Shown piece by piece: positions 12,152 through 38,136 of a DNA stretch of 64,000 nucleotides (position 1 is the first letter of the stretch; each line of letters opens with the position of its first letter). Made by a program: the position numbers and the translations under genes. The stretch spans positions 3,754,660 through 3,818,659 of the forward strand of contig OY969922.1 in assembly GCA_963704595.1 (NCBI GenBank), written 5' to 3'. This DNA comes from an uncultured Alphaproteobacteria bacterium. Its GTDB lineage: Bacteria; Pseudomonadota; Alphaproteobacteria; Rhizobiales; Amorphaceae. The notes below the pieces were generated by a model that saw only the letters and a program-made list of their open reading frames with translations, had not been told where the DNA came from and ran no database searches.

Positions 12152-12226
12152 TGGAGCGGGCGATGGGGATCGAACCCACGACATCAAGCTTGGGAAGCTT
12201 GCGTTCTACCGCTGAACTACACCCGC
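12152..12226 (-). tRNA. tRNA-Gly (anticodon CCC), CCA encoded
   Basis: Reverse complement GCGGGTGTAGTTCAGCGGTAGAACG...CUUCCCAAG...GGTTCGATCCCCATCGCCCGCTCCA folds as a cloverleaf: 7-bp acceptor stem with one G-U pair, anticodon loop UUCCCAA, T-loop GGTTCGATCC. Confidence 0.9.
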
Positions 12227-31080: not shown

Positions 31081-31266
31081 TCAGCTACGTGCGAGCCAGA
31101 CGATAGCAACGCCGGCGGCAAGCGCAACGACGCCGCCGACACGCATGGTGTCCGGCGGCGTCTCAAGCATCCGCTCCATCAGGCCGTGCATGGCCTTCGG
31201 AAACAGTGCGTAAACAGTGCCTTCGACGGCGAGCACGAGGCCCGCCGCCAGGAGGAGTTCGTTCAT
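31081..31266 (-). CDS. DUF2065 small membrane protein
   Basis: 61 aa with two TM segments; conserved partner downstream of hflC; 4-nt overlap with hflC. Confidence 0.6.
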   Translation of the reverse strand: MNELLLAAGLVLAVEGTVYALFPKAMHGLMERMLETPPDTMRVGGVVALAAGVAIVWLARS

Positions 31267-32738
31267 TCCGTCCGCTGCTCGGGCCGGACGATGGTCACGT
31301 TGCCGCGCTGCGTCGCGTTGACGCCGGAGGCGCGCGCGGGCGCCGCGGTGCCTTCTGCCGCGGGGGCCGCGGCCGGGAGCTGGCCTCGGTCGCCGCGCCG
31401 TCCGCCGCCGCGCCGTTGCCGGCGTTGACGTCGTTGTTGGCGGCGCGGTTGGCTGCCGGGAGCGGAGCCGGATCGGCGCTCTCGACCGCCTCTTCGGTGC
31501 TCTCCTCGGCCGGGGTCGGCTCCCGGTAGCGTCCGCGGCGGGGTCGGCTCGGCCGGGGCCACGGTCGTCTCGGGCGCGGCAGCGCCTTCGCCGGCAGGCG
31601 CCGGCTCGTCGCCGTCGAGGTCGACGTTCAGCGCATCCTCGAGGCCCTGCTGGGCTGCGGCCTTGGCTTCCTCGACAACCGCGTCGAGGTTGGCCTGGGC
31701 TTCCGCAACGCTTTCGGCCGCGGTCGCCCTGGTGACCTCGTCGGTCGGACGCACGATCGGCGCGTTCGGGTCGGCTGCCGCCGGCAGTTCCGGCGCCGGG
31801 AGGCCTGCATCACCCGTCTGCTCGCGGGACGCGAGACCATCGGCACGCTCGCCGGTGGCACGGGCCGAACGGGAGAGCCCGGCCGGGTCGTTGAAGTAGC
31901 GGAAGAAGTCCGCGTCCGGCGACAGCACGAGGCGCGTGTCGGAGGCTGCCAGCAATTCCACGTAGGCCTGCATCGCGCGGTAGAACGCGAAGAACTGCGG
32001 GTCCTGCGTGTAGGCCTCGGCGAAGATGGCGTTCTTGCGCGCATCACCCTGACCGCGGACCTGCTCGGCTTCCCGCTGGGCTTCGGCGCGAAGCACCGTT
32101 GCCGTGCGGTCGGCGGCCGCGCGGACACGCTGCGAGGCTTCACGGCCCTGTGCGCGGATCTGCGTGGCTTCCTGCTCGCGCTCGGTCTGCATCCGCTGGA
32201 AGATGGCTTCGGAGTTGGCTTCCGGCAGGTCGGCGCGGCGGATCTTCACGTCCACCACCTCGACGCCGATGTCACGCGCACGGGTCGCCACGTCCTGCTG
32301 GATGCGCCGCATCAGCTCGGGCCGGTTGTCGCGCACGATGTCCTGGAAGGTGGCGTCGGCGAGCACCGCACGCAGCGAAGACTGCGCGAAGGTGGACAGG
32401 CGCGACGCGCCTTCGCGCACGTTGTTCACCGTCTGGTAGAAGCGCACCGGGTTGGCGATCTGGTAGCGCACGAACGCGTCCACCACGAGCCGCTTCTGGT
32501 CCGCCGCGATGATTTCCTGCGCCGGAACGTTGAGGTCGAGCAGCCGCTTGTCGAGGTACTGGACGTCCTGGACGAACGGGATCTTGGCATTGATGCCCGG
32601 ATCGCGGACGGCCTGACGGACTTCACCGAACTGCAGGACGAGCGCCTGCTGGGTCGGGTTGACGATGAAGAAGGAGTTGAGGGCGGCGACCACTGCGGCC
32701 GCCAGGATCACGAGAAAGGCGATGAGGCCGACGCGCAT
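31263..32738 (-). CDS. hflC: Protease modulator HflC (SPFH/band-7) with a long low-complexity C-terminal extension (possibly frame-shifted near the end)
   Basis: N-terminal ~300 aa is canonical HflC; residues >300 are Ala/Pro/Glu-rich, and the last ~60 aa look like GC noise. Confidence 0.85.
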   Translation of the reverse strand: MRVGLIAFLVILAAAVVAALNSFFIVNPTQQALVLQFGEVRQAVRDPGINAKIPFVQDVQYLDKRLLDLNVPAQEIIAADQKRLVVDAFVRYQIANPVRFYQTVNNVREGASRLSTFAQSSLRAVLADATFQDIVRDNRPELMRRIQQDVATRARDIGVEVVDVKIRRADLPEANSEAIFQRMQTEREQEATQIRAQGREASQRVRAAADRTATVLRAEAQREAEQVRGQGDARKNAIFAEAYTQDPQFFAFYRAMQAYVELLAASDTRLVLSPDADFFRYFNDPAGLSRSARATGERADGLASREQTGDAGLPAPELPAAADPNAPIVRPTDEVTRATAAESVAEAQANLDAVVEEAKAAAQQGLEDALNVDLDGDEPAPAGEGAAAPETTVAPAEPTPPRTLPGADPGRGEHRRGGRERRSGSAPGSQPRRQQRRQRRQRRGGGRRGDRGQLPAAAPAAEGTAAPARASGVNATQRGNVTIVRPEQRTE

Positions 32739-33950
32739 TATCGGGCTCCCTGGGTCTGGGTGGCTGCAGGCCGGGCTTCGTTCAGCCGGTCAAGCGGGAG
32801 GTAGGGGACGACGCCCGAGCCGCCGCCGCTCTGGTCGATGATGATCTTGTCGGTGCCGGCCAGAACACGCTCCATGGTTTCAAGATAGATGCGCTGGCGG
32901 GTGACTTCCGGCGCCTTGCGGTACTCTTCGAAGACCGACAGGAAGCGGTCCGCCTCACCGGTTGCCTCGGCAACCACCTGGTCGCGGTATGCGCTGGCGT
33001 TTTCCACGATCCGGGCCGCCTCACCGCGTGCCTGGGGCACGATGTCGTTGGCGTAGGCGTCGGCCTCGTTCTGGAAGCGCTCCTGGTCGGCGCGGGCGGT
33101 CTGCACGTCACGGAACGCGCCGATGACGGCCTGCGGGCGGGTCGACCTTCTGGGTCTGCACCTGGCTGACTTCGATGCCGGCGCCGTAGTTGTTCAGCGT
33201 CGTCTGCATCAGCGCCTGCACGTCCTGTTCGACCTGCTGGCGCTCCTGCGTCAGGATCGGCTGGATGTTCTTGCGACCGACCACCTCACGCATCGCGCTC
33301 TCGGCAACCTGCTTCACGGTAGAGGCAGGGTCCTCGACGTTGAAGAGGTAGTTGGCCGGGTCGGAGATGCGCCACTGCACCTTGAAGTCGACGTCGACGA
33401 TGTTCTCGTCGCCGGTCAGCATCAGGCTTTCCTGCGGCACGTCGGCCCCGCGGCCCTCGCCGGTCGAGCCGATGTTGACTTCGCGGATACGCAGGACGTC
33501 GGGCGTGTAGACCTCGCCGAACGGGTAGGGCCAGTTGTAGTTGAGGCCCGGCTGCGTGGTGCTCTGATACTTGCCGAGCACCAGCTCGACGCCGAGTTCG
33601 CCCGGGCCGACGCGGTAGAAGCCGGTGAGGCCGTAGACCACCGCCGCCGCGATGACGGCCAGAAGGACGCCGCGCGCGCCGATGGCACCCGCCGACGGGC
33701 CGCCGCCGCCACCGCTGCCATTGCCGCCGCCACCGCCCTTGCGGGGCAGCACGCGCTTCAGCTTGTCCTGGCTCCGGCGCAGAAGGTCTTCCAGATCGGG
33801 CGAGCCCTGATCCTTGCCGCCGCGCTGGGGCCCCTGCCCCCACGGATTCGGCTTGTTCGGCCCGTTGCTGTTGCCGCCACCGCCCCAAGGGCCGTCACCG
33901 CCGCCCCATGGGCCGCCACCTTTACCGCCCGACTGGTTGTTCCAGGGCAT
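32738..33950 (-). CDS. hflK: Protease modulator HflK (SPFH/band-7), 1-nt frame shift near 33125
   Basis: ORF 33108..33965 (Gly-rich N-terminus, TM, SPFH) ends ...QKVDPPAGRHRRVP*; the next frame continues the canonical VDPPQAVIGAFRDVQTARADQ in ORF 32738..33106. Confidence 0.85.
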
Positions 33951-34082
33951 TCCCGCTCCCCTCAAAGTCCGAAATTTATCGCGCTACGCACAATTTCAGT
34001 TGTGCACATAGGCACCCGCTGTCGGAGCGCAAACGCGGCCAAACGCGCAACGCATATAGGCTGACGCGGCCCGATGTTTCAA

Positions 34083-34577
34083 TCAGTGACCGCGCGGGGC
34101 GCGCCGAAAGGTCATATAGGTGAAGTCGTGATCGTCGTTCGGACCGCGGATTCCGGGTTGCCGATCGGCCAGCGTGAACGCGGCCTCGTCGATCTCGGGG
34201 AAGCGCGTGTCCCCCTCGGGTGCGGCATGAACGCGGGTGAGGTGGATCGTGTCCGCCAGCGCCATTCCCTCGCGGTAGATCGCCTCGCCGCCCGCGAGGA
34301 ACACCGGCCCCTCGGCCATCCGGACGGCCTCCGCGAGGCTCCGGGCCGTCTCCACGCCGTCGATGCTGCGGCTGGTCACAACGATGGTGCGGCGGCCGGG
34401 AAGCGGCCTTCCGATGGATTCGTGCGTCCGGCGCCCGATGACGACGGTGTGGCCCAGCGTCAGCGCCTTGAAGTGCTTGAGGTCGCTGGAGAGGCGCCAC
34501 GGGATCTGGCCGTCGCGGCCGATCACGCCGTTCTCGGCCGCTGCGACAATCAGCGCGATGTCGGGATCAGACGGCAA
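34083..34577 (-). CDS. folA: Dihydrofolate reductase
   Basis: [23 protein letters not shown] ... VIGRRT ... LAGGEAIY. Confidence 0.93.
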
Positions 34578-35358
34578 TGGGCGCCTTGATGGTCGGGTGC
34601 GGATCGTAGCCCTTCACCACGATGTGCTCGGCCTCGATCGCGAACAGGTCGCGCGGCGCGCCTTCCAGGACGAGTGTCGGCAGCGGGCGCGGCTCGCGCG
34701 TCAGCTGCAGGCGCGCCTGCTCGAGATGGTTGAGGTAAAGGTGCGCGTCGCCCAGCGTGTGGACGAGCGTGCCCGGCTGAAGGCCGGTCGCGTGCGCCAT
34801 CATGTGCGTCATGATCGCGTAGCTCGCGATGTTGAACGGCACGCCGAGGAACACGTCCGCCGAGCGCTGGTAGACCTGACACGAGAGTTTGCCGGCCGCC
34901 ACGTGGAACTGGAAGAGAAGGTGGCAGGGCGGCAGCGCCATCTTGTCGAGGTCGCCGACATTCCAGGCCGACACGATGTGCCGGCGTGACGCGGGATCGC
35001 TCTTTATGGATTCCACCACGCGGGCGAGTTGGTCGACCGGGCCCTCCGCCGTCGGCCACGCGCGCCACTGGCGGCCGTAGATGGGCCCAAGCTCGCCGTC
35101 GGCGTCCGCCCATTCGTCCCAGATGGTCGCCCCGCGCTCGCGCAGCTGGCCGGCGTTGGTCTCCCCGGCGATGAACCACAGGAGCTCGGCCACCACGGAT
35201 TTGAGGTGCACCTTCTTGGTGGTGACGAGCGGAAAGCCCTTGGAGAGGTCGTACCGGTCCTGATGGCCGAAGACGGAGAGCGTGCCGACGCCGGTGCGAT
35301 CCGCCTGGCGGACGCCCTCGTCGAGTATGAGCCGTATCAAACGGTGATACTGGTCCAT
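34567..35358 (-). CDS. thyA: Thymidylate synthase
   Basis: Canonical ThyA ([11 protein letters not shown] ... PPCHLLFQF ... DAHLYLNH). Confidence 0.95.
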
Positions 35359-35589
35359 GAGCCTACTCCGTTTCCCATTGCCGCAACCCCTCGGTTAACG
35401 CGCGAAGGGCGAGGAACCAACGCTCGTTTTCCGGGCAAAACTTCCGGGGATAGGGAGGACAACGGTTTCGCACCTCTTTTCAGGCGGGCGCGCACGCAGC
35501 TGGCGCAGGAGACGGGCGCGGGACAATGCCGGCCGAAGAACCCTTCTCATCGCGGCCCGGCTCCCCTATATTCGGGTCTGCCAGCGACG

Positions 35590-35940
35590 GTTGGCTATGG
35601 CGATAAACGGGCAGCGTAATAAGCTCTTCGGACCCGGGGGCGGTACCCGGCGCCTCCACCCAAGCCGCGAGCCTTGAACAGGGCGCGCGGTTTCGGCGGG
35701 GGCGAAATAGGATCGACGAGGGTGTAAAGGCTCTTCTTTCGCTCGGTATGGTACCACCGTCATCGGACCAAAACTGTAGTTGCGAATGACAACTATGCTG
35801 AGGCTCGTCTCGCTGCGTAACGCAGCGCGATAACCTCGTTTAAGTCCTTTCCCTTAGCCGGGCGAGGCGGGGTTCGGAGGCACCTGGCAACAGAAGCCTC
35901 CACTTCATCCTGCCCATACACATCCGGTTCAGCCGCAGCG
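35590..35940 (+). ncRNA. ssrA: tmRNA (ssrA), circularly permuted two-piece alphaproteobacterial form; acceptor piece ends at ~35660, coding piece starts at ~35698
   Basis: Tag frame GCG AAT GAC AAC TAT GCT GAG GCT CGT CTC GCT GCG TAA (ANDNYAEARLAA*), preceded by UAGUU, with the stop codon inside a cgctgcg/cgcagcg hairpin. T-arm ccggg-ggcggta-cccgg followed by the acceptor 3' strand cgccucc-A-CC. Coding-piece 5' end GGGGGCG..GGAUCGACGAGGG gives a 7-bp acceptor stem with a G3.U70 pair. Outer gene ends are approximate. Confidence 0.85.
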
Positions 35941-36161
35941 CGCGTCGCGACGGCCACCGAGGCGATGGGCGAACACAGCGTCACACCGGACAAACCAGCT
36001 ATTTCAGGCCGCGGCCCCCGCAAACGACTTGTCACGCCGTTTGCAAAGGCCGAAAAGACGCGACTGCTGAAAACATCCGTACCGTGAGAAAAACCGCCAG
36101 CATGGCCCGTTGGAATGATGGGGCGGACACGCTACCTATGCCGCAATGAAGGAGGTGGATC

Positions 36162-36710
36162 GTGGTTGACGACCTCATCCGTTACGACGTTCTGGTGCAA
36201 GACGCCCTGCGCGGGGTCGTGCGCAAGGTGATGCGCGAGGTGGCCGACGGCGGTCTCCCCGGCGAGCATCACTTCTATATCGCGTTCGACACGACCGCGC
36301 CCGGCGTTCGCATGTCCTCCCGGCTGCGCCAGCAGCACCCGGAAGAGATGACGGTCGTCCTGCAGCACCAGTTCTGGGATCTGTCGGTGACCGACCACAC
36401 CTTCGAGGTGGGGCTGTCCTTCGGCGGTGTGCCGGAGCGGCTTCTGGTGCCGTTCGCTGCGGTAAAGGGCTTCTTCGACCCCTCAGTCCAGTTCGGCCTG
36501 CAGTTCGACCCGGCCAACAACGCCCCCGAGGCGCAGAAACCTGCCGGTCCCACCGCCGTCCCTGCGCCGACGCTCGCCACGCCCGCACACGTCCCCGCCC
36601 CGGCGCAGGACGATGACGCCGGCAGCGACGAGGACGCCGAGCACGAAACCACACCCCCGAGCGAGGGCGCGCAGGTCGTCTCCCTGGACGCCTTCCGCAA
36701 GAAGCCCTGA
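36162..36710 (+). CDS. sspB: ClpXP adaptor SspB (stringent starvation protein B)
   Basis: N-terminal SspB fold sequence (FYIAFDT ... VVLQHQFWDL) followed by an acidic disordered tail. Confidence 0.8.
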   Translation: MVDDLIRYDVLVQDALRGVVRKVMREVADGGLPGEHHFYIAFDTTAPGVRMSSRLRQQHPEEMTVVLQHQFWDLSVTDHTFEVGLSFGGVPERLLVPFAAVKGFFDPSVQFGLQFDPANNAPEAQKPAGPTAVPAPTLATPAHVPAPAQDDDAGSDEDAEHETTPPSEGAQVVSLDAFRKKP

Positions 36711-37168
36711 TGGAGGGGCAGAAGCGCATCGGCTTCGCCGCGCACGACGCGGTCAAGGCGCAGCTCGGCGCCTGGGCGTTCGCCAACGAGGCGGCGCTTG
36801 CCGACCATGTGCTGACCGCGACCGGCAACACCGGCCGCGTCCTCCTCGAGGCCACCGGCCTCGACGTGACGTGCCTGCGCTCCGGCACGCTGGGCGGCGA
36901 CATGGAGCTCGGCGCGCTGATCGCCGACAACCAGATCGACATCCTGATCCTGTTCGCCGACCCGCTGACCCGCCAGCCGCACGACGTCGACCCCGCCCCG
37001 CTCCTGCGCATGGCGACGATCGCGCAGATCGCCGTCGCGACGACGGAGACGACGGCCGACTTCATCATCCGCTCGGAGCTGATGAGCAAACCCTATTTCC
37101 GCCGGGCGCATGAGGCCTCGCGCCTGCAGCCCGCGCAGCGCAGCATCACCCAGCGCGAGCGAACCTGA
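36710..37168 (+). CDS. mgsA: Methylglyoxal synthase
   Basis: IGFAAHD ... LTATGNTG ... GGDMELGA ... DPLTRQPHDVD ... ATTETTADF. Confidence 0.88.
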   Translation: MEGQKRIGFAAHDAVKAQLGAWAFANEAALADHVLTATGNTGRVLLEATGLDVTCLRSGTLGGDMELGALIADNQIDILILFADPLTRQPHDVDPAPLLRMATIAQIAVATTETTADFIIRSELMSKPYFRRAHEASRLQPAQRSITQRERT

Positions 37169-37319
37169 GCCACGCCTGCCACCTCCCCGCACGCACCGCC
37201 CTGCACTGCCTGCGGCACAGTGCGCCGCCTTGTCACGCCGGCGTGACTTGCGGCGCGGCATGGTTGGCACAACGCTAGCCTTCGAACTCCCGTTCAACCC
37301 GACGAGGAAGGACCGTTCG

Positions 37320-38136
37320 ATGCATGCGACCCTCAAGGCATTGGCTTTCGCGGGGCTTGCGCTCGCGCTCTTCGCCCCTCCCGCCGCCGCACAGGTCTCC
37401 AACTGTCAGGCGATTGCCGAGCGGCTGCCCGGCGCCAAGCTGTGGCGCGCCGCGACGGGGGGCGCCGACGCCTACTCGGTCGACATCACCTACGTCGGGC
37501 ACTCCACCTTCCGCATCGTGGCGCCGGACGGCACCACCATCGCGACCGACTATTCGGGCACCCACGGCGGCGACCGCCTCCCCGACGTCGTCACCATGAA
37601 CCACGCCCACTCCAGCCACTGGACGCCGGTGCCGGACCCCGGCATCCCCCACGCGCTGAAGGGCTGGAACCCCGAAGGGGGCCGCGCCAACCACTTCCTC
37701 AACGTCGGCGAGGTGCTTGATCCGCAGCGTCCCCAGCGACATCCGCACCTGGGGCGGCCAGGTGGAGGCAAACGGCAACTCCATCTTCGTGTTCGAGATC
37801 GCGGGCCTGTGCATCGGCCACCTCGGCCACCTCCACCAGGAACTCAATGATTCCCAGATCGCCGAAATCGGCCGGCTCGACATCGTGTTCGTGCCGATCG
37901 ATGGCGGGCGGACCATGCGCCATGGCGAGATGATGAACGTCATCAGCCGCCTGCGCGCCTCGCTGGCGATCCCGATGCACTGGTTCAGCAACTACAACCT
38001 GAACGAATTCGCTGCCCGGACGCGGGACGACGGGTTCGCGGTCTCTATGAACCCCTCCCCCACCGTCACGGTGTCGCTGAACACCCTGCCCGACACGCCG
38101 ACGCTCCTGGTGATGCCGCGCGAGGTGCCGTTCTAG
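37320..38136 (+). CDS. MBL-fold metallo-hydrolase, secreted, 1-nt frame shift near 37715
   Basis: Signal peptide MHATLKALAFAGLALALFAPPAAAQ; N-terminal part in ORF 37110..37850; C-terminal part (HLGHLHQE ... ) in ORF 37717..38136. Confidence 0.7.

Follow-up and report, generated by a model that had tools for sequence, protein, structure and literature searches.

A canonical two-piece tmRNA gene and an adjacent alpha-type sspB in an uncultured alphaproteobacterium of the Amorphaceae

Introduction

The complex of SmpB and transfer-messenger RNA (tmRNA), the product of ssrA, rescues stalled ribosomes and appends a peptide tag. In the two-piece family of these RNAs, cleavage of the precursor yields two RNAs that remain paired, and alanyl-tRNA synthetase charges the tRNA-like domain through the base pair G3.U70. 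The adaptor SspB-alpha grips the tag at its N-terminal part and is tethered to ClpX by its own C-terminal tail, while ClpX reads the C-terminal residues of the tag. The two-piece form was reportedly first described by Keiler, Shapiro and Williams in 2000 (cited in PMC8119881), in Caulobacter crescentus, and the papers on SspB-alpha are said to be those of Lessner et al. and Chien et al., both of 2007. Here we describe the ssrA gene and its neighbor sspB in a 64,000-nucleotide (nt) stretch of DNA from an uncultured alphaproteobacterium of the family Amorphaceae (assembly GCA_963704595.1, contig OY969922.1, positions 3,754,660 to 3,818,659), which we call the window and in whose coordinates we give positions throughout.

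Mapped transcripts are published for Caulobacter NA1000, where the tmRNA gene (CCNA_R0049) has a transcription start site (TSS) at 2338502 and internal 5' ends at 2338615 and 2338692 (PMC4287350, dataset S1). The Caulobacter adaptor, SspB-alpha (CC2102), has been listed as a signature protein of the alphaproteobacteria that is missing only from Pelagibacter (PMC1182365; PMC2241609).

Results

A permuted tmRNA gene in the window

The tmRNA gene was called with ARAGORN and with Rfam covariance models, for which the curated gathering scores are 50 bits (RF01849) and 47 bits (RF04321). ARAGORN reports a permuted 'tmRNA*' at 35566-35911 on the plus strand, with the tag peptide ANDNYAEARLAA*. The alpha_tmRNA model RF01849 matches at 35540-35904 (+) with 293.1 bits and an E value of 1.9e-84, covering model positions 1-355 of 355, and the tmRNA_permuted model RF04321 also matches the locus, with 149.7 bits. 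An earlier note, made from the letters of the window alone, had read a circularly permuted tmRNA here. ARAGORN and both Rfam models agree with it, and the covariance-model check that the note had set in advance brought no refutation, as the RF01849 match stands at about six times the threshold.

The order of the parts is permuted: the T-arm and the 3' strand of the acceptor stem come first, and the acceptor 5' strand follows with the tag frame. Identity elements of tRNA-Ala are present as G3.U70 in a 7-bp acceptor stem together with the discriminator A35658, and the Rfam alignment flags zero non-canonical pairs in the acceptor stem or T-arm. The tag frame opens with an alanine resume codon and closes with hydrophobic residues, AA and a stop (ANDNYAEARLAA*). 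This locus is the organism's canonical ssrA, encoding the two-piece tmRNA typical of Alphaproteobacteria; it is of a known kind that standard pipelines routinely annotate.

The gene lies in the stretch bounded by thyA (34567-35358, minus strand) on one side and by the next gene of the plus strand on the other. The earlier note had placed the tmRNA in a track of open reading frames (ORFs) that was blank from 35359 to 36160. The tmRNA stands, but the blankness does not, for mechanical ORFs run at 35029-35619 (+), 35566-35763 (-) and 35793-36035 (-). A hidden protein gene in this region was considered and rejected, none of the three having a Pfam match. The sole other structured RNA gene that ARAGORN and Rfam find in the window is a tRNA-Gly (CCC) at 12152-12226 (-). 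ORF-based tracks overlook ssrA, and a seemingly empty stretch of about 800 nt is fully accounted for by a structured, presumably highly expressed RNA gene.

Anatomy of ssrA

The promoter assigned to ssrA (Table 1) is the only sigma-70-like site in 35200-36900, where shuffled sequences average 0.2. The sequences CCCTTC-C and CCTATATTC are invariant in three Acuticoccus loci, as are both hexamer regions. Its -10 box belongs to the RF01849 consensus, and the same layout recurs in Caulobacter, there with a mapped TSS.

Table 1. Positions of the ssrA, sspB and mgsA features in the window
Feature	Position	Strand	Description and basis
ssrA promoter	35544-35572	+	-35 TTCTCA 35544-35549, 17-nt spacer, -10 TATATT 35567-35572; predicted TSS ~35579-35581
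Acceptor piece	35579-35660	+	5' hairpin, strands pairing with coding piece, T-arm, acceptor 3' strand, ACC; Rfam and direct reading
T-arm CCGGG-GGCGGTA-CCCGG	35634-35650	+	Direct reading
Acceptor 3' strand CGCCUCC	35651-35657	+	Direct reading
Discriminator A	35658	+	Direct reading
CC	35659-35660	+	Direct reading
Intervening segment, 37 nt	35661-35697	+	Low-confidence insert region of Rfam alignment
Coding piece	35698-35904	+	Acceptor 5' strand, pairing strands, tag frame, 3' hairpin; end 35904 by RF01849, 35911 by ARAGORN
Acceptor 5' strand GGGGGCG	35698-35704	+	Third G opposite U35655 (T in DNA), G3.U70
Tag reading frame including stop	35782-35820	+	Resume codon GCG at 35782, preceded by UAGUU; ARAGORN and direct reading
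Stop-codon hairpin, 7 bp, CGCTGCG/CGCAGCG	35811-35827	+	Loop holds TAA 35818-35820
3' hairpin GGAGGC-ACCUGGCAACAGAA-GCCUCC	35876-35881 / 35896-35901	+	Conserved gene end
ssrA-sspB spacer, 257 nt	35905-36161	+	Holds putative sspB promoter and ribosome-binding site
Putative sspB promoter	36110-36115 / 36131-36138	+	-35 TTGGAA, -10-like GCTACCTA; inferred from conservation
sspB ribosome-binding site AGGAGG	36150-36155	+	Sequence
sspB, alpha-proteobacterial type, 182 amino acids (aa)	36162-36710	+	PF04386; GTG start, AGGAGG six bases upstream
mgsA, methylglyoxal synthase, 152 aa	36710-37168	+	NF003559, PF02142

The ends of the acceptor piece follow from the promoter on the 5' side and from the position of ACC on the 3' side, both by inference. 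Direct reading agrees base for base with the earlier note, which had ended this piece near 35660 with CGCCUCC-A-CC, and the intervening segment has the length of about 37 nt that the note had given it. The coding piece likewise begins where the note had put it (about 35698, with GGGGGCG), and its third G faces T35655, giving the G3.U70 pair that the note had named. The terminal A of CCA is not encoded in the window, where the genome reads ACC-C at 35658-35661. A full CCA is encoded in just 35 of 78 related tmRNA genes and is thus not a defining feature in practice. Because the CCA end is incompletely encoded, it needs to be completed after transcription.

Within the intervening segment, AAGCCGCG (35662-35669) pairs with CGCGGUUU (35686-35693) to form a hairpin. 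The sequence of the segment varies between Acuticoccus species, and the pairing of the stem is kept by compensatory changes, as in CCGCG/CGCGG in the window against CCCAC/GTGGG in Acuticoccus kandeliae (full strands AAGCCGCG/CGCGGTTT and AAATCCCAC/GTGGGGTTT, respectively). A variable sequence on a kept hairpin is what would be expected of a spacer that merely closes the precursor acceptor stem before it is removed. From the predicted TSS to the start of the coding piece the distance is about 119 nt. Its equivalent in Caulobacter is the 5' end 113 nt past the TSS, which by an offset estimate against the related locus L082 coincides with the GGGG start of the coding piece. This internal 5' end and the kept hairpin lend indirect support to processing into two stable RNAs.

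The tag codons are GCG AAU GAC AAC UAU GCU GAG GCU CGU CUC GCU GCG UAA, or (A)NDNYAEARLAA and stop. ARAGORN and direct reading return the UAGUU, the tag ANDNYAEARLAA and the stop codon in its hairpin loop just as the earlier note had described them. That note had also spoken of a Rhizobiales-type tag, a fair label because the identical tag ANDNYAEARLAA is found in several related Hyphomicrobiales genera (Aureimonas, Mesorhizobium, Pseudoxanthobacter, Cucumibacter and Rhodobium, and also in Acuticoccus mangrovi). Among the surveyed tags it is the middle that varies, and the N-terminal ANDN[YF]A and the final AA hardly change. The near-invariance of ANDN[YF]A would fit a conserved adaptor-binding site.

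The 3' hairpin followed by a U-tract was considered as a strong intrinsic terminator and rejected: a T-rich tail follows the hairpin in many relatives, but a T-run of at least 4 occurs in just 21 of 80, the U-tract is mostly short, and it is weak in the window.

The adjacent sspB and mgsA genes

The product of the gene downstream of ssrA scores 176.4 bits against Pfam PF04386 (cut-off 27). In the PDB it matches the Agrobacterium structure 2nys_A (E value 4.3e-49) and the Caulobacter SspB structures 2qas_A (2e-36) and 2qaz_A (3.8e-36), whereas the match to Escherichia coli SspB is weak (8et3_Y, E value 0.004) and the gamma-type NCBIfam equivalog NF008770 gives 23.5 bits against a cut-off of 198. 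The strong matches to alphaproteobacterial structures and the weak ones to E. coli SspB and NF008770 place this SspB in the alpha branch of the family. The earlier note was therefore right about the adaptor gene and its strand, but its distance of 200 bp was too short, the gap being about 250-257 nt.

SspB is laid out as an N-terminal tag-binding domain (approximately residues 1-118), an acidic linker rich in Pro and Ala, and the C-terminal sequence VVSLDAFRKKP. DAFRKK is kept in all full-length aligned relatives, and the Caulobacter counterpart reads IVSLDQFRKK. By analogy with what is known of the family, this tail is predicted to be the ClpX tether. The nearest named relatives are from Acuticoccus species (75-86% identity), which points to an Acuticoccus-like member of the Hyphomicrobiales as the source of the window.

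Next comes mgsA, as the earlier note had it. Its product scores 150 bits against NF003559 (cut-off 84) and 42 bits against PF02142; against TIGR00160 it reaches 121.5 bits, under the cut-off of 146.9. The mgsA ATG and the sspB stop share one base (TGATG, 36708-36712), an overlap that implies translational coupling of the two genes. The same overlap is present in Acuticoccus sp. MNP-M23 and A. sediminis (loci L205 and L206). Downstream of sspB, mgsA is lacking in A. kandeliae, in Rhizobiaceae (which have DUF4169 instead) and in Caulobacter (a PaaI thioesterase instead).

Conservation of the ssrA-sspB order

A sample of 80 sspB loci was taken from species-representative Hyphomicrobiales genomes of many families, ranked by similarity to the query. 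A permuted tmRNA lies upstream on the same strand in 74 of the 80, of which 70 were found by ARAGORN and 4 by Rfam (L056 and the contig-truncated L032, L073 and L074). One locus (L006) is uninformative, its upstream DNA being too short. Among the remaining 79, the tmRNA is at most 400 nt from sspB in 68 (86%), always on the same strand, so that the survey of Rhizobiales neighborhoods proposed in the earlier note finds the two genes adjoining in most loci. The median gap is 105 nt by the ARAGORN calls. In a further 6 of the 79 ssrA lies 1.1-3.2 kb upstream, and in 5 (3 Methylobacterium, 1 Phyllobacterium and 1 Aquamicrobium) no tmRNA was found within 4 kb of sspB.

ARAGORN alone proved unreliable for permuted tmRNAs. 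It missed L056, L082 and L084 as well as genes truncated by contig ends, all of which Rfam recovered, and for this reason its negatives were re-examined with Rfam. The full-length genes that it missed (L056, L082, L084 and others) score 170-242 bits with RF01849. Surveys of two-piece tmRNAs that rest on ARAGORN alone will undercount.

Since Rhizobiaceae are missing from the top-80 list, three loci of that family were examined separately (the Agrobacterium/Rhizobium group, R. leguminosarum and Neorhizobium galegae). In all three, ssrA is 120-149 nt upstream of sspB, and the loci also carry a divergent thyA-folA-hflKC block; in the window, too, thyA, folA and hflK/hflC lie upstream of ssrA and are divergent from it. 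The pair is likewise present in 3/3 Caulobacterales loci, with gaps of roughly 439 nt in Caulobacter sp. 1776, 178 nt in C. vibrioides and 98 nt in a Phenylobacterium metagenome-assembled genome (MAG). The SspB of the C. vibrioides locus is that of PDB 2qas.

Metagenome contigs were scanned with a 14-base tmRNA motif, which gave 120 matches; 28 were alpha-type tmRNA loci and the rest mostly chance, and 26 of the 28 were informative. sspB is directly downstream in 16/26, among them a Rhodospirillaceae MAG and a MarineAlpha10 MAG, and 2.8-3.5 kb downstream on the same strand in 3/26. These distances are about 2.8-2.9 kb in Sulfitobacter and Yoonia (Rhodobacterales) and about 3.5 kb in Rhizomicrobium. 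In the other 7/26, sspB was not found within the 0.8-5.9 kb of downstream DNA.

The larger gaps between ssrA and sspB are occupied by small inserted gene pairs. Brucella/Mesorhizobium-type loci (L028, L061, L065, L076) have an MFS transporter (-) and a TetR regulator (+) there, sometimes with an AAA-like ATPase, and A. mangrovi and A. sediminis have a MarR gene (-) and an ABM-domain gene (+) (L001, 2873-4000; L206, 1938-3000). These insertions leave the orientation of ssrA and sspB unchanged. Taken across orders, the survey indicates that the ssrA-sspB order is old and widespread in the class, always co-oriented, and loosened or lost in some lineages.

Other RNA elements were seen at several of the surveyed loci. 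A chrB-a RNA motif (RF03078) lies within the interval of about 2.8 kb between ssrA and sspB in the Sulfitobacter and Yoonia loci (L092, 5435-5513, -; L151, 2922-3001, +). The Rhizobiales small RNA Atu_C8 (RF02502) occurs in Aquamicrobium (L077, 3698-3820, -) on the strand opposite to sspB and about 180 nt upstream of that gene, at a locus with no ssrA within 4 kb, and in an Agrobacterium/Rhizobium locus (L208, 15334-15453, +) about 5 kb downstream of sspB.

The spacer and the transcription of sspB

Besides the ribosome-binding site and start codon, the sole block common to the window spacer and the diverged spacer of A. kandeliae is TTGGA[AT]T...CGCTA, 24-52 nt before the start codon. It resembles the GCTA-type -10 element upstream of the mapped Caulobacter sspB TSS. 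An extra RNA element in the spacer was considered and rejected, as no Rfam family matches and the folding is no better than that of shuffled sequences (z = -0.6). A 15-nt direct repeat, CG[AC]CTTGTCACGCCG, occurs in the spacer at 36025-36039 and again at 37226-37240, about 90 nt upstream of the lactamase-like gene with a frameshift described below. Either chance or a common role, as a -35 or operator-like site, could account for it.

Caulobacter sspB (CCNA_02187, whose annotation names it the SspB adaptor) starts at 2339090, and a separate primary TSS for it maps 26 nt ahead, at 2339064 (PMC4287350, dataset S1). Over the 38 nt leading up to this TSS the RNA-seq coverage is 27, compared with 384 after it and about 1e5 inside the tmRNA (PMC4287350; PMC4117421), and an operon table lists sspB and two downstream genes as one operon starting at sspB (PMC4117421). 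For Caulobacter the question is settled: ssrA and sspB are separate units, with almost no read-through from ssrA. Supplements of a TSS paper on Sinorhizobium meliloti hold no ssrA or sspB entries. Judged from the conserved block, sspB-mgsA in the window is most likely served, as in Caulobacter, by a weak promoter of its own directly upstream. Given the Caulobacter TSS and the promoter-like block here, the linkage is to be described as ancient synteny, with an operon undemonstrated. The 'neat functional linkage' of the earlier note therefore holds as conserved synteny; taken as an operon, it runs against the Caulobacter sspB TSS and the near absence of read-through.

Possible frameshifts near the locus

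Downstream of mgsA, a metallo-hydrolase gene of the Lactamase_B_3 family (37320-38136, +) is broken by a frameshift. Residues 1-139 of its intact homologue in Acuticoccus sp. MNP-M23 align in frame 3 (37320-37736) and residues 107-272 in frame 1 (37639-38136), and the gene is either a pseudogene or the product of an assembly indel. On the other side of ssrA (31263-33965, -), hflK is apparently split into a 285-aa ORF (33108-33965) and a 122-aa ORF (32738-33106), whereas HflK in relatives is one protein of 360-403 aa. The hflC ORF beside it has 491 aa and an Arg/Gln/Gly-rich tail, compared with about 312-320 aa in relatives. Together, the three anomalies suggest several indel errors or recent pseudogenization in this stretch.

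Discussion

At a probability of about 0.93, we consider that the window carries a canonical ssrA and, adjacent to it, an alpha-type SspB gene in an ancient order, with sspB-mgsA probably served by its own promoter and an operon with ssrA unproven. Gene identities, sequence features and synteny were observed directly. How the locus works can be proposed by analogy, as knowledge of the family is the source for processing, charging, tagging, tag binding and ClpX binding alike. A single precursor would be transcribed from the sigma-70-type promoter at 35544-35572, and the 37-nt hairpin between the tmRNA halves would be excised, with RNase P generating the start of the coding piece at G35698. On the acceptor piece, trimming would leave a 3' end at ACC, after which the CCA-adding enzyme would finish the CCA. 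Both RNAs would remain base-paired and form a tRNA-Ala-like domain with G3.U70. Charged with alanine, this domain would enter the stalled ribosome with SmpB, translation would switch to the internal frame, and the nascent chain would gain ANDNYAEARLAA. The N-terminal domain of SspB would then hold the tag by its conserved N-terminal part (ANDN-aromatic-A), the tail VVSLDAFRKK of SspB would tether the adaptor to ClpX, and ClpX would recognize the C-terminal LAA, so that ClpXP could degrade the tagged protein.

Several points weigh against this account. The promoters assigned in the window are consensus matches. A terminator scan found no intrinsic terminator after ssrA, the weak tail behind the 3' hairpin reading ACTTCATCC, and given this lack of a clear terminator there may be partial read-through from ssrA into sspB. 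Finally, the genome sample used for synteny is ranked by similarity and thus non-random for the class. The first of the rival explanations takes up the matter of read-through, holding that ssrA and sspB form one transcription unit in which the weak 3' hairpin is read through, the joint tmRNA-sspB precursor is processed, and adaptor synthesis is mechanically coupled to that of the tmRNA. Wherever ssrA and sspB are linked they share a strand, no canonical terminator was found after ssrA in the window, and in some relatives (Microvirga L038 and L070; Alsobacter L008; L057) the sspB start is about 25-36 nt past the tmRNA 3' hairpin. Such spacers leave no room for a separate sspB promoter, and in L038 and L008 no promoter-like site besides that of ssrA was detected, so for these short-spacer relatives co-transcription is a reasonable possibility. 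For the window, however, we think a single unit unlikely. Caulobacter sspB has a primary TSS, with coverage of about 27 upstream of it against about 1e5 in the tmRNA; the window spacer has 257 nt and carries, 24-52 nt ahead of the sspB start codon, the conserved block that resembles a promoter; a -10-like box, GCTAGCAT, is conserved in the spacers of Xanthobacteraceae and Bradyrhizobiaceae; and several lineages tolerate whole opposite-strand genes between ssrA and sspB. A far weaker rival, which we judge highly improbable, would make the tmRNA-like sequence a decayed or secondary copy, for example the remnant of a genomic island integrated at ssrA. Genes for tmRNA are frequent integration sites, and in C. 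vibrioides (L082) about 25 nt of the tmRNA 3' hairpin (GGGAGCCTGCCAACAGAATCCC, 1438-1455) are repeated some 65 nt downstream of ssrA (1504-1530), a partial duplicate that resembles a scar left by integration or excision at the 3' end of ssrA in the past. An integrated island marked in this way was looked for in the window and rejected, as no duplicated tmRNA fragment was found there. Moreover, the 293-bit match is full-length with every helix intact, the tag frame is unbroken and matches that of relatives exactly, the promoter is conserved, and the gene stands in the same syntenic position as in all relatives.

With a canonical ssrA and a separately transcribed sspB-mgsA as the preferred reading, the remaining question is why the pair stays together. 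The adjacency may be functionally neutral, a frozen ancestral order between two short essential or near-essential genes where rearrangements are rare, and we hold this to be nearly an even bet. The independent transcription units of Caulobacter agree with it, as do the insertions between the genes (MFS and TetR; MarR and ABM) and the loss of linkage in some Methylobacterium, Phyllobacterium and Aquamicrobium loci and in several metagenomic alphaproteobacterial lineages. The wider block of thyA-folA-hflKC and ssrA-sspB is common to Acuticoccus and Rhizobiaceae, and its conservation points to general regional stability. Against neutrality, the linkage is kept over at least 3-4 orders while the flanking genes change, from thyA in Hyphomicrobiales to ilvBH or an Atu4866-like gene in Caulobacter on the upstream side and among mgsA, DUF4169 and a PaaI thioesterase on the downstream side, and orientation is preserved throughout, even after insertions. 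Alternatively, selection rather than inertia may keep ssrA and sspB paired across Alphaproteobacteria. Read-through and processing of the tmRNA precursor would then supply the adaptor mRNA in the lineages with spacers of 25-36 nt (Microvirga, Alsobacter and some Beijerinckiaceae-like MAGs), and the two genes, both alpha-specific variants (permuted tmRNA and SspB-alpha), may have diverged from their ancestral forms as a linked pair. We offer this as a tentative and rather doubtful proposal; if it were true, tag-reading capacity in those lineages would be set directly by tmRNA transcription.

Whatever holds the pair together, protein-only neighborhood tools are blind to the fact that the tag RNA adjoins the tag-reading adaptor in most Hyphomicrobiales and Caulobacterales and in some other alphaproteobacteria. 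The order also supplies a positional rule for finding either gene, sspB-alpha lying just downstream of ssrA, and the species with very short spacers make up a set in which co-transcription of a tmRNA and a protein gene could be tested.

Comparison with known systems

The RNA, a standard member of RF01849, and the protein, a standard SspB-alpha, are both of known kinds that automatic annotation would pick up, as it would mgsA. The conserved ssrA-sspB synteny is a neat regularity that may be under-reported, and it brings no new mechanism. A full-text literature search, which did not reach the primary SspB-alpha papers, found no paper stating the gene order; annotated genomes do show the two genes side by side, as with CCNA_R0049 and CCNA_02187.

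Measured against the alphaproteobacterial tmRNA of RF01849, the window gene has the same order of acceptor piece, intervening segment and coding piece, a near-exact T-arm and acceptor consensus with G3.U70, an ANDN... tag ending in AA, a stop codon in a hairpin and an upstream -10 box. Its intervening segment is species-specific, and the terminal A of its CCA is unencoded, as in about half of the relatives. Compared with the Caulobacter tmRNA, whose tag contains FAEEFAVAA, the window gene has the EARLAA variant and is otherwise alike in kind. The adaptor compares similarly with Caulobacter SspB-alpha (CC2102 / CCNA_02187). Identity is about 51% in the substrate-binding domain; the folded domain, the acidic linker and the [VI]VSLD.FRKK tail are the same, and so is the place directly downstream of ssrA. 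The window linker is longer, however, and the next gene is mgsA with a 1-nt overlap, in contrast to the PaaI thioesterase and C13 peptidase of Caulobacter.

A neighborhood survey by Hudson, Lau and Williams (2014) was centered on smpB, covering smpB-ssrA and smpB-rnr neighborhoods, and did not report sspB as a neighbor (PMC4131195). In Caulobacter, smpB (CCNA_01254) is not beside ssrA but about 1 Mb away. Like smpB-ssrA clustering, the arrangement in the window sets a tmRNA gene beside a protein gene of the same pathway; unlike SmpB, the partner here belongs to the proteolysis that follows tagging and not to ribosome rescue.

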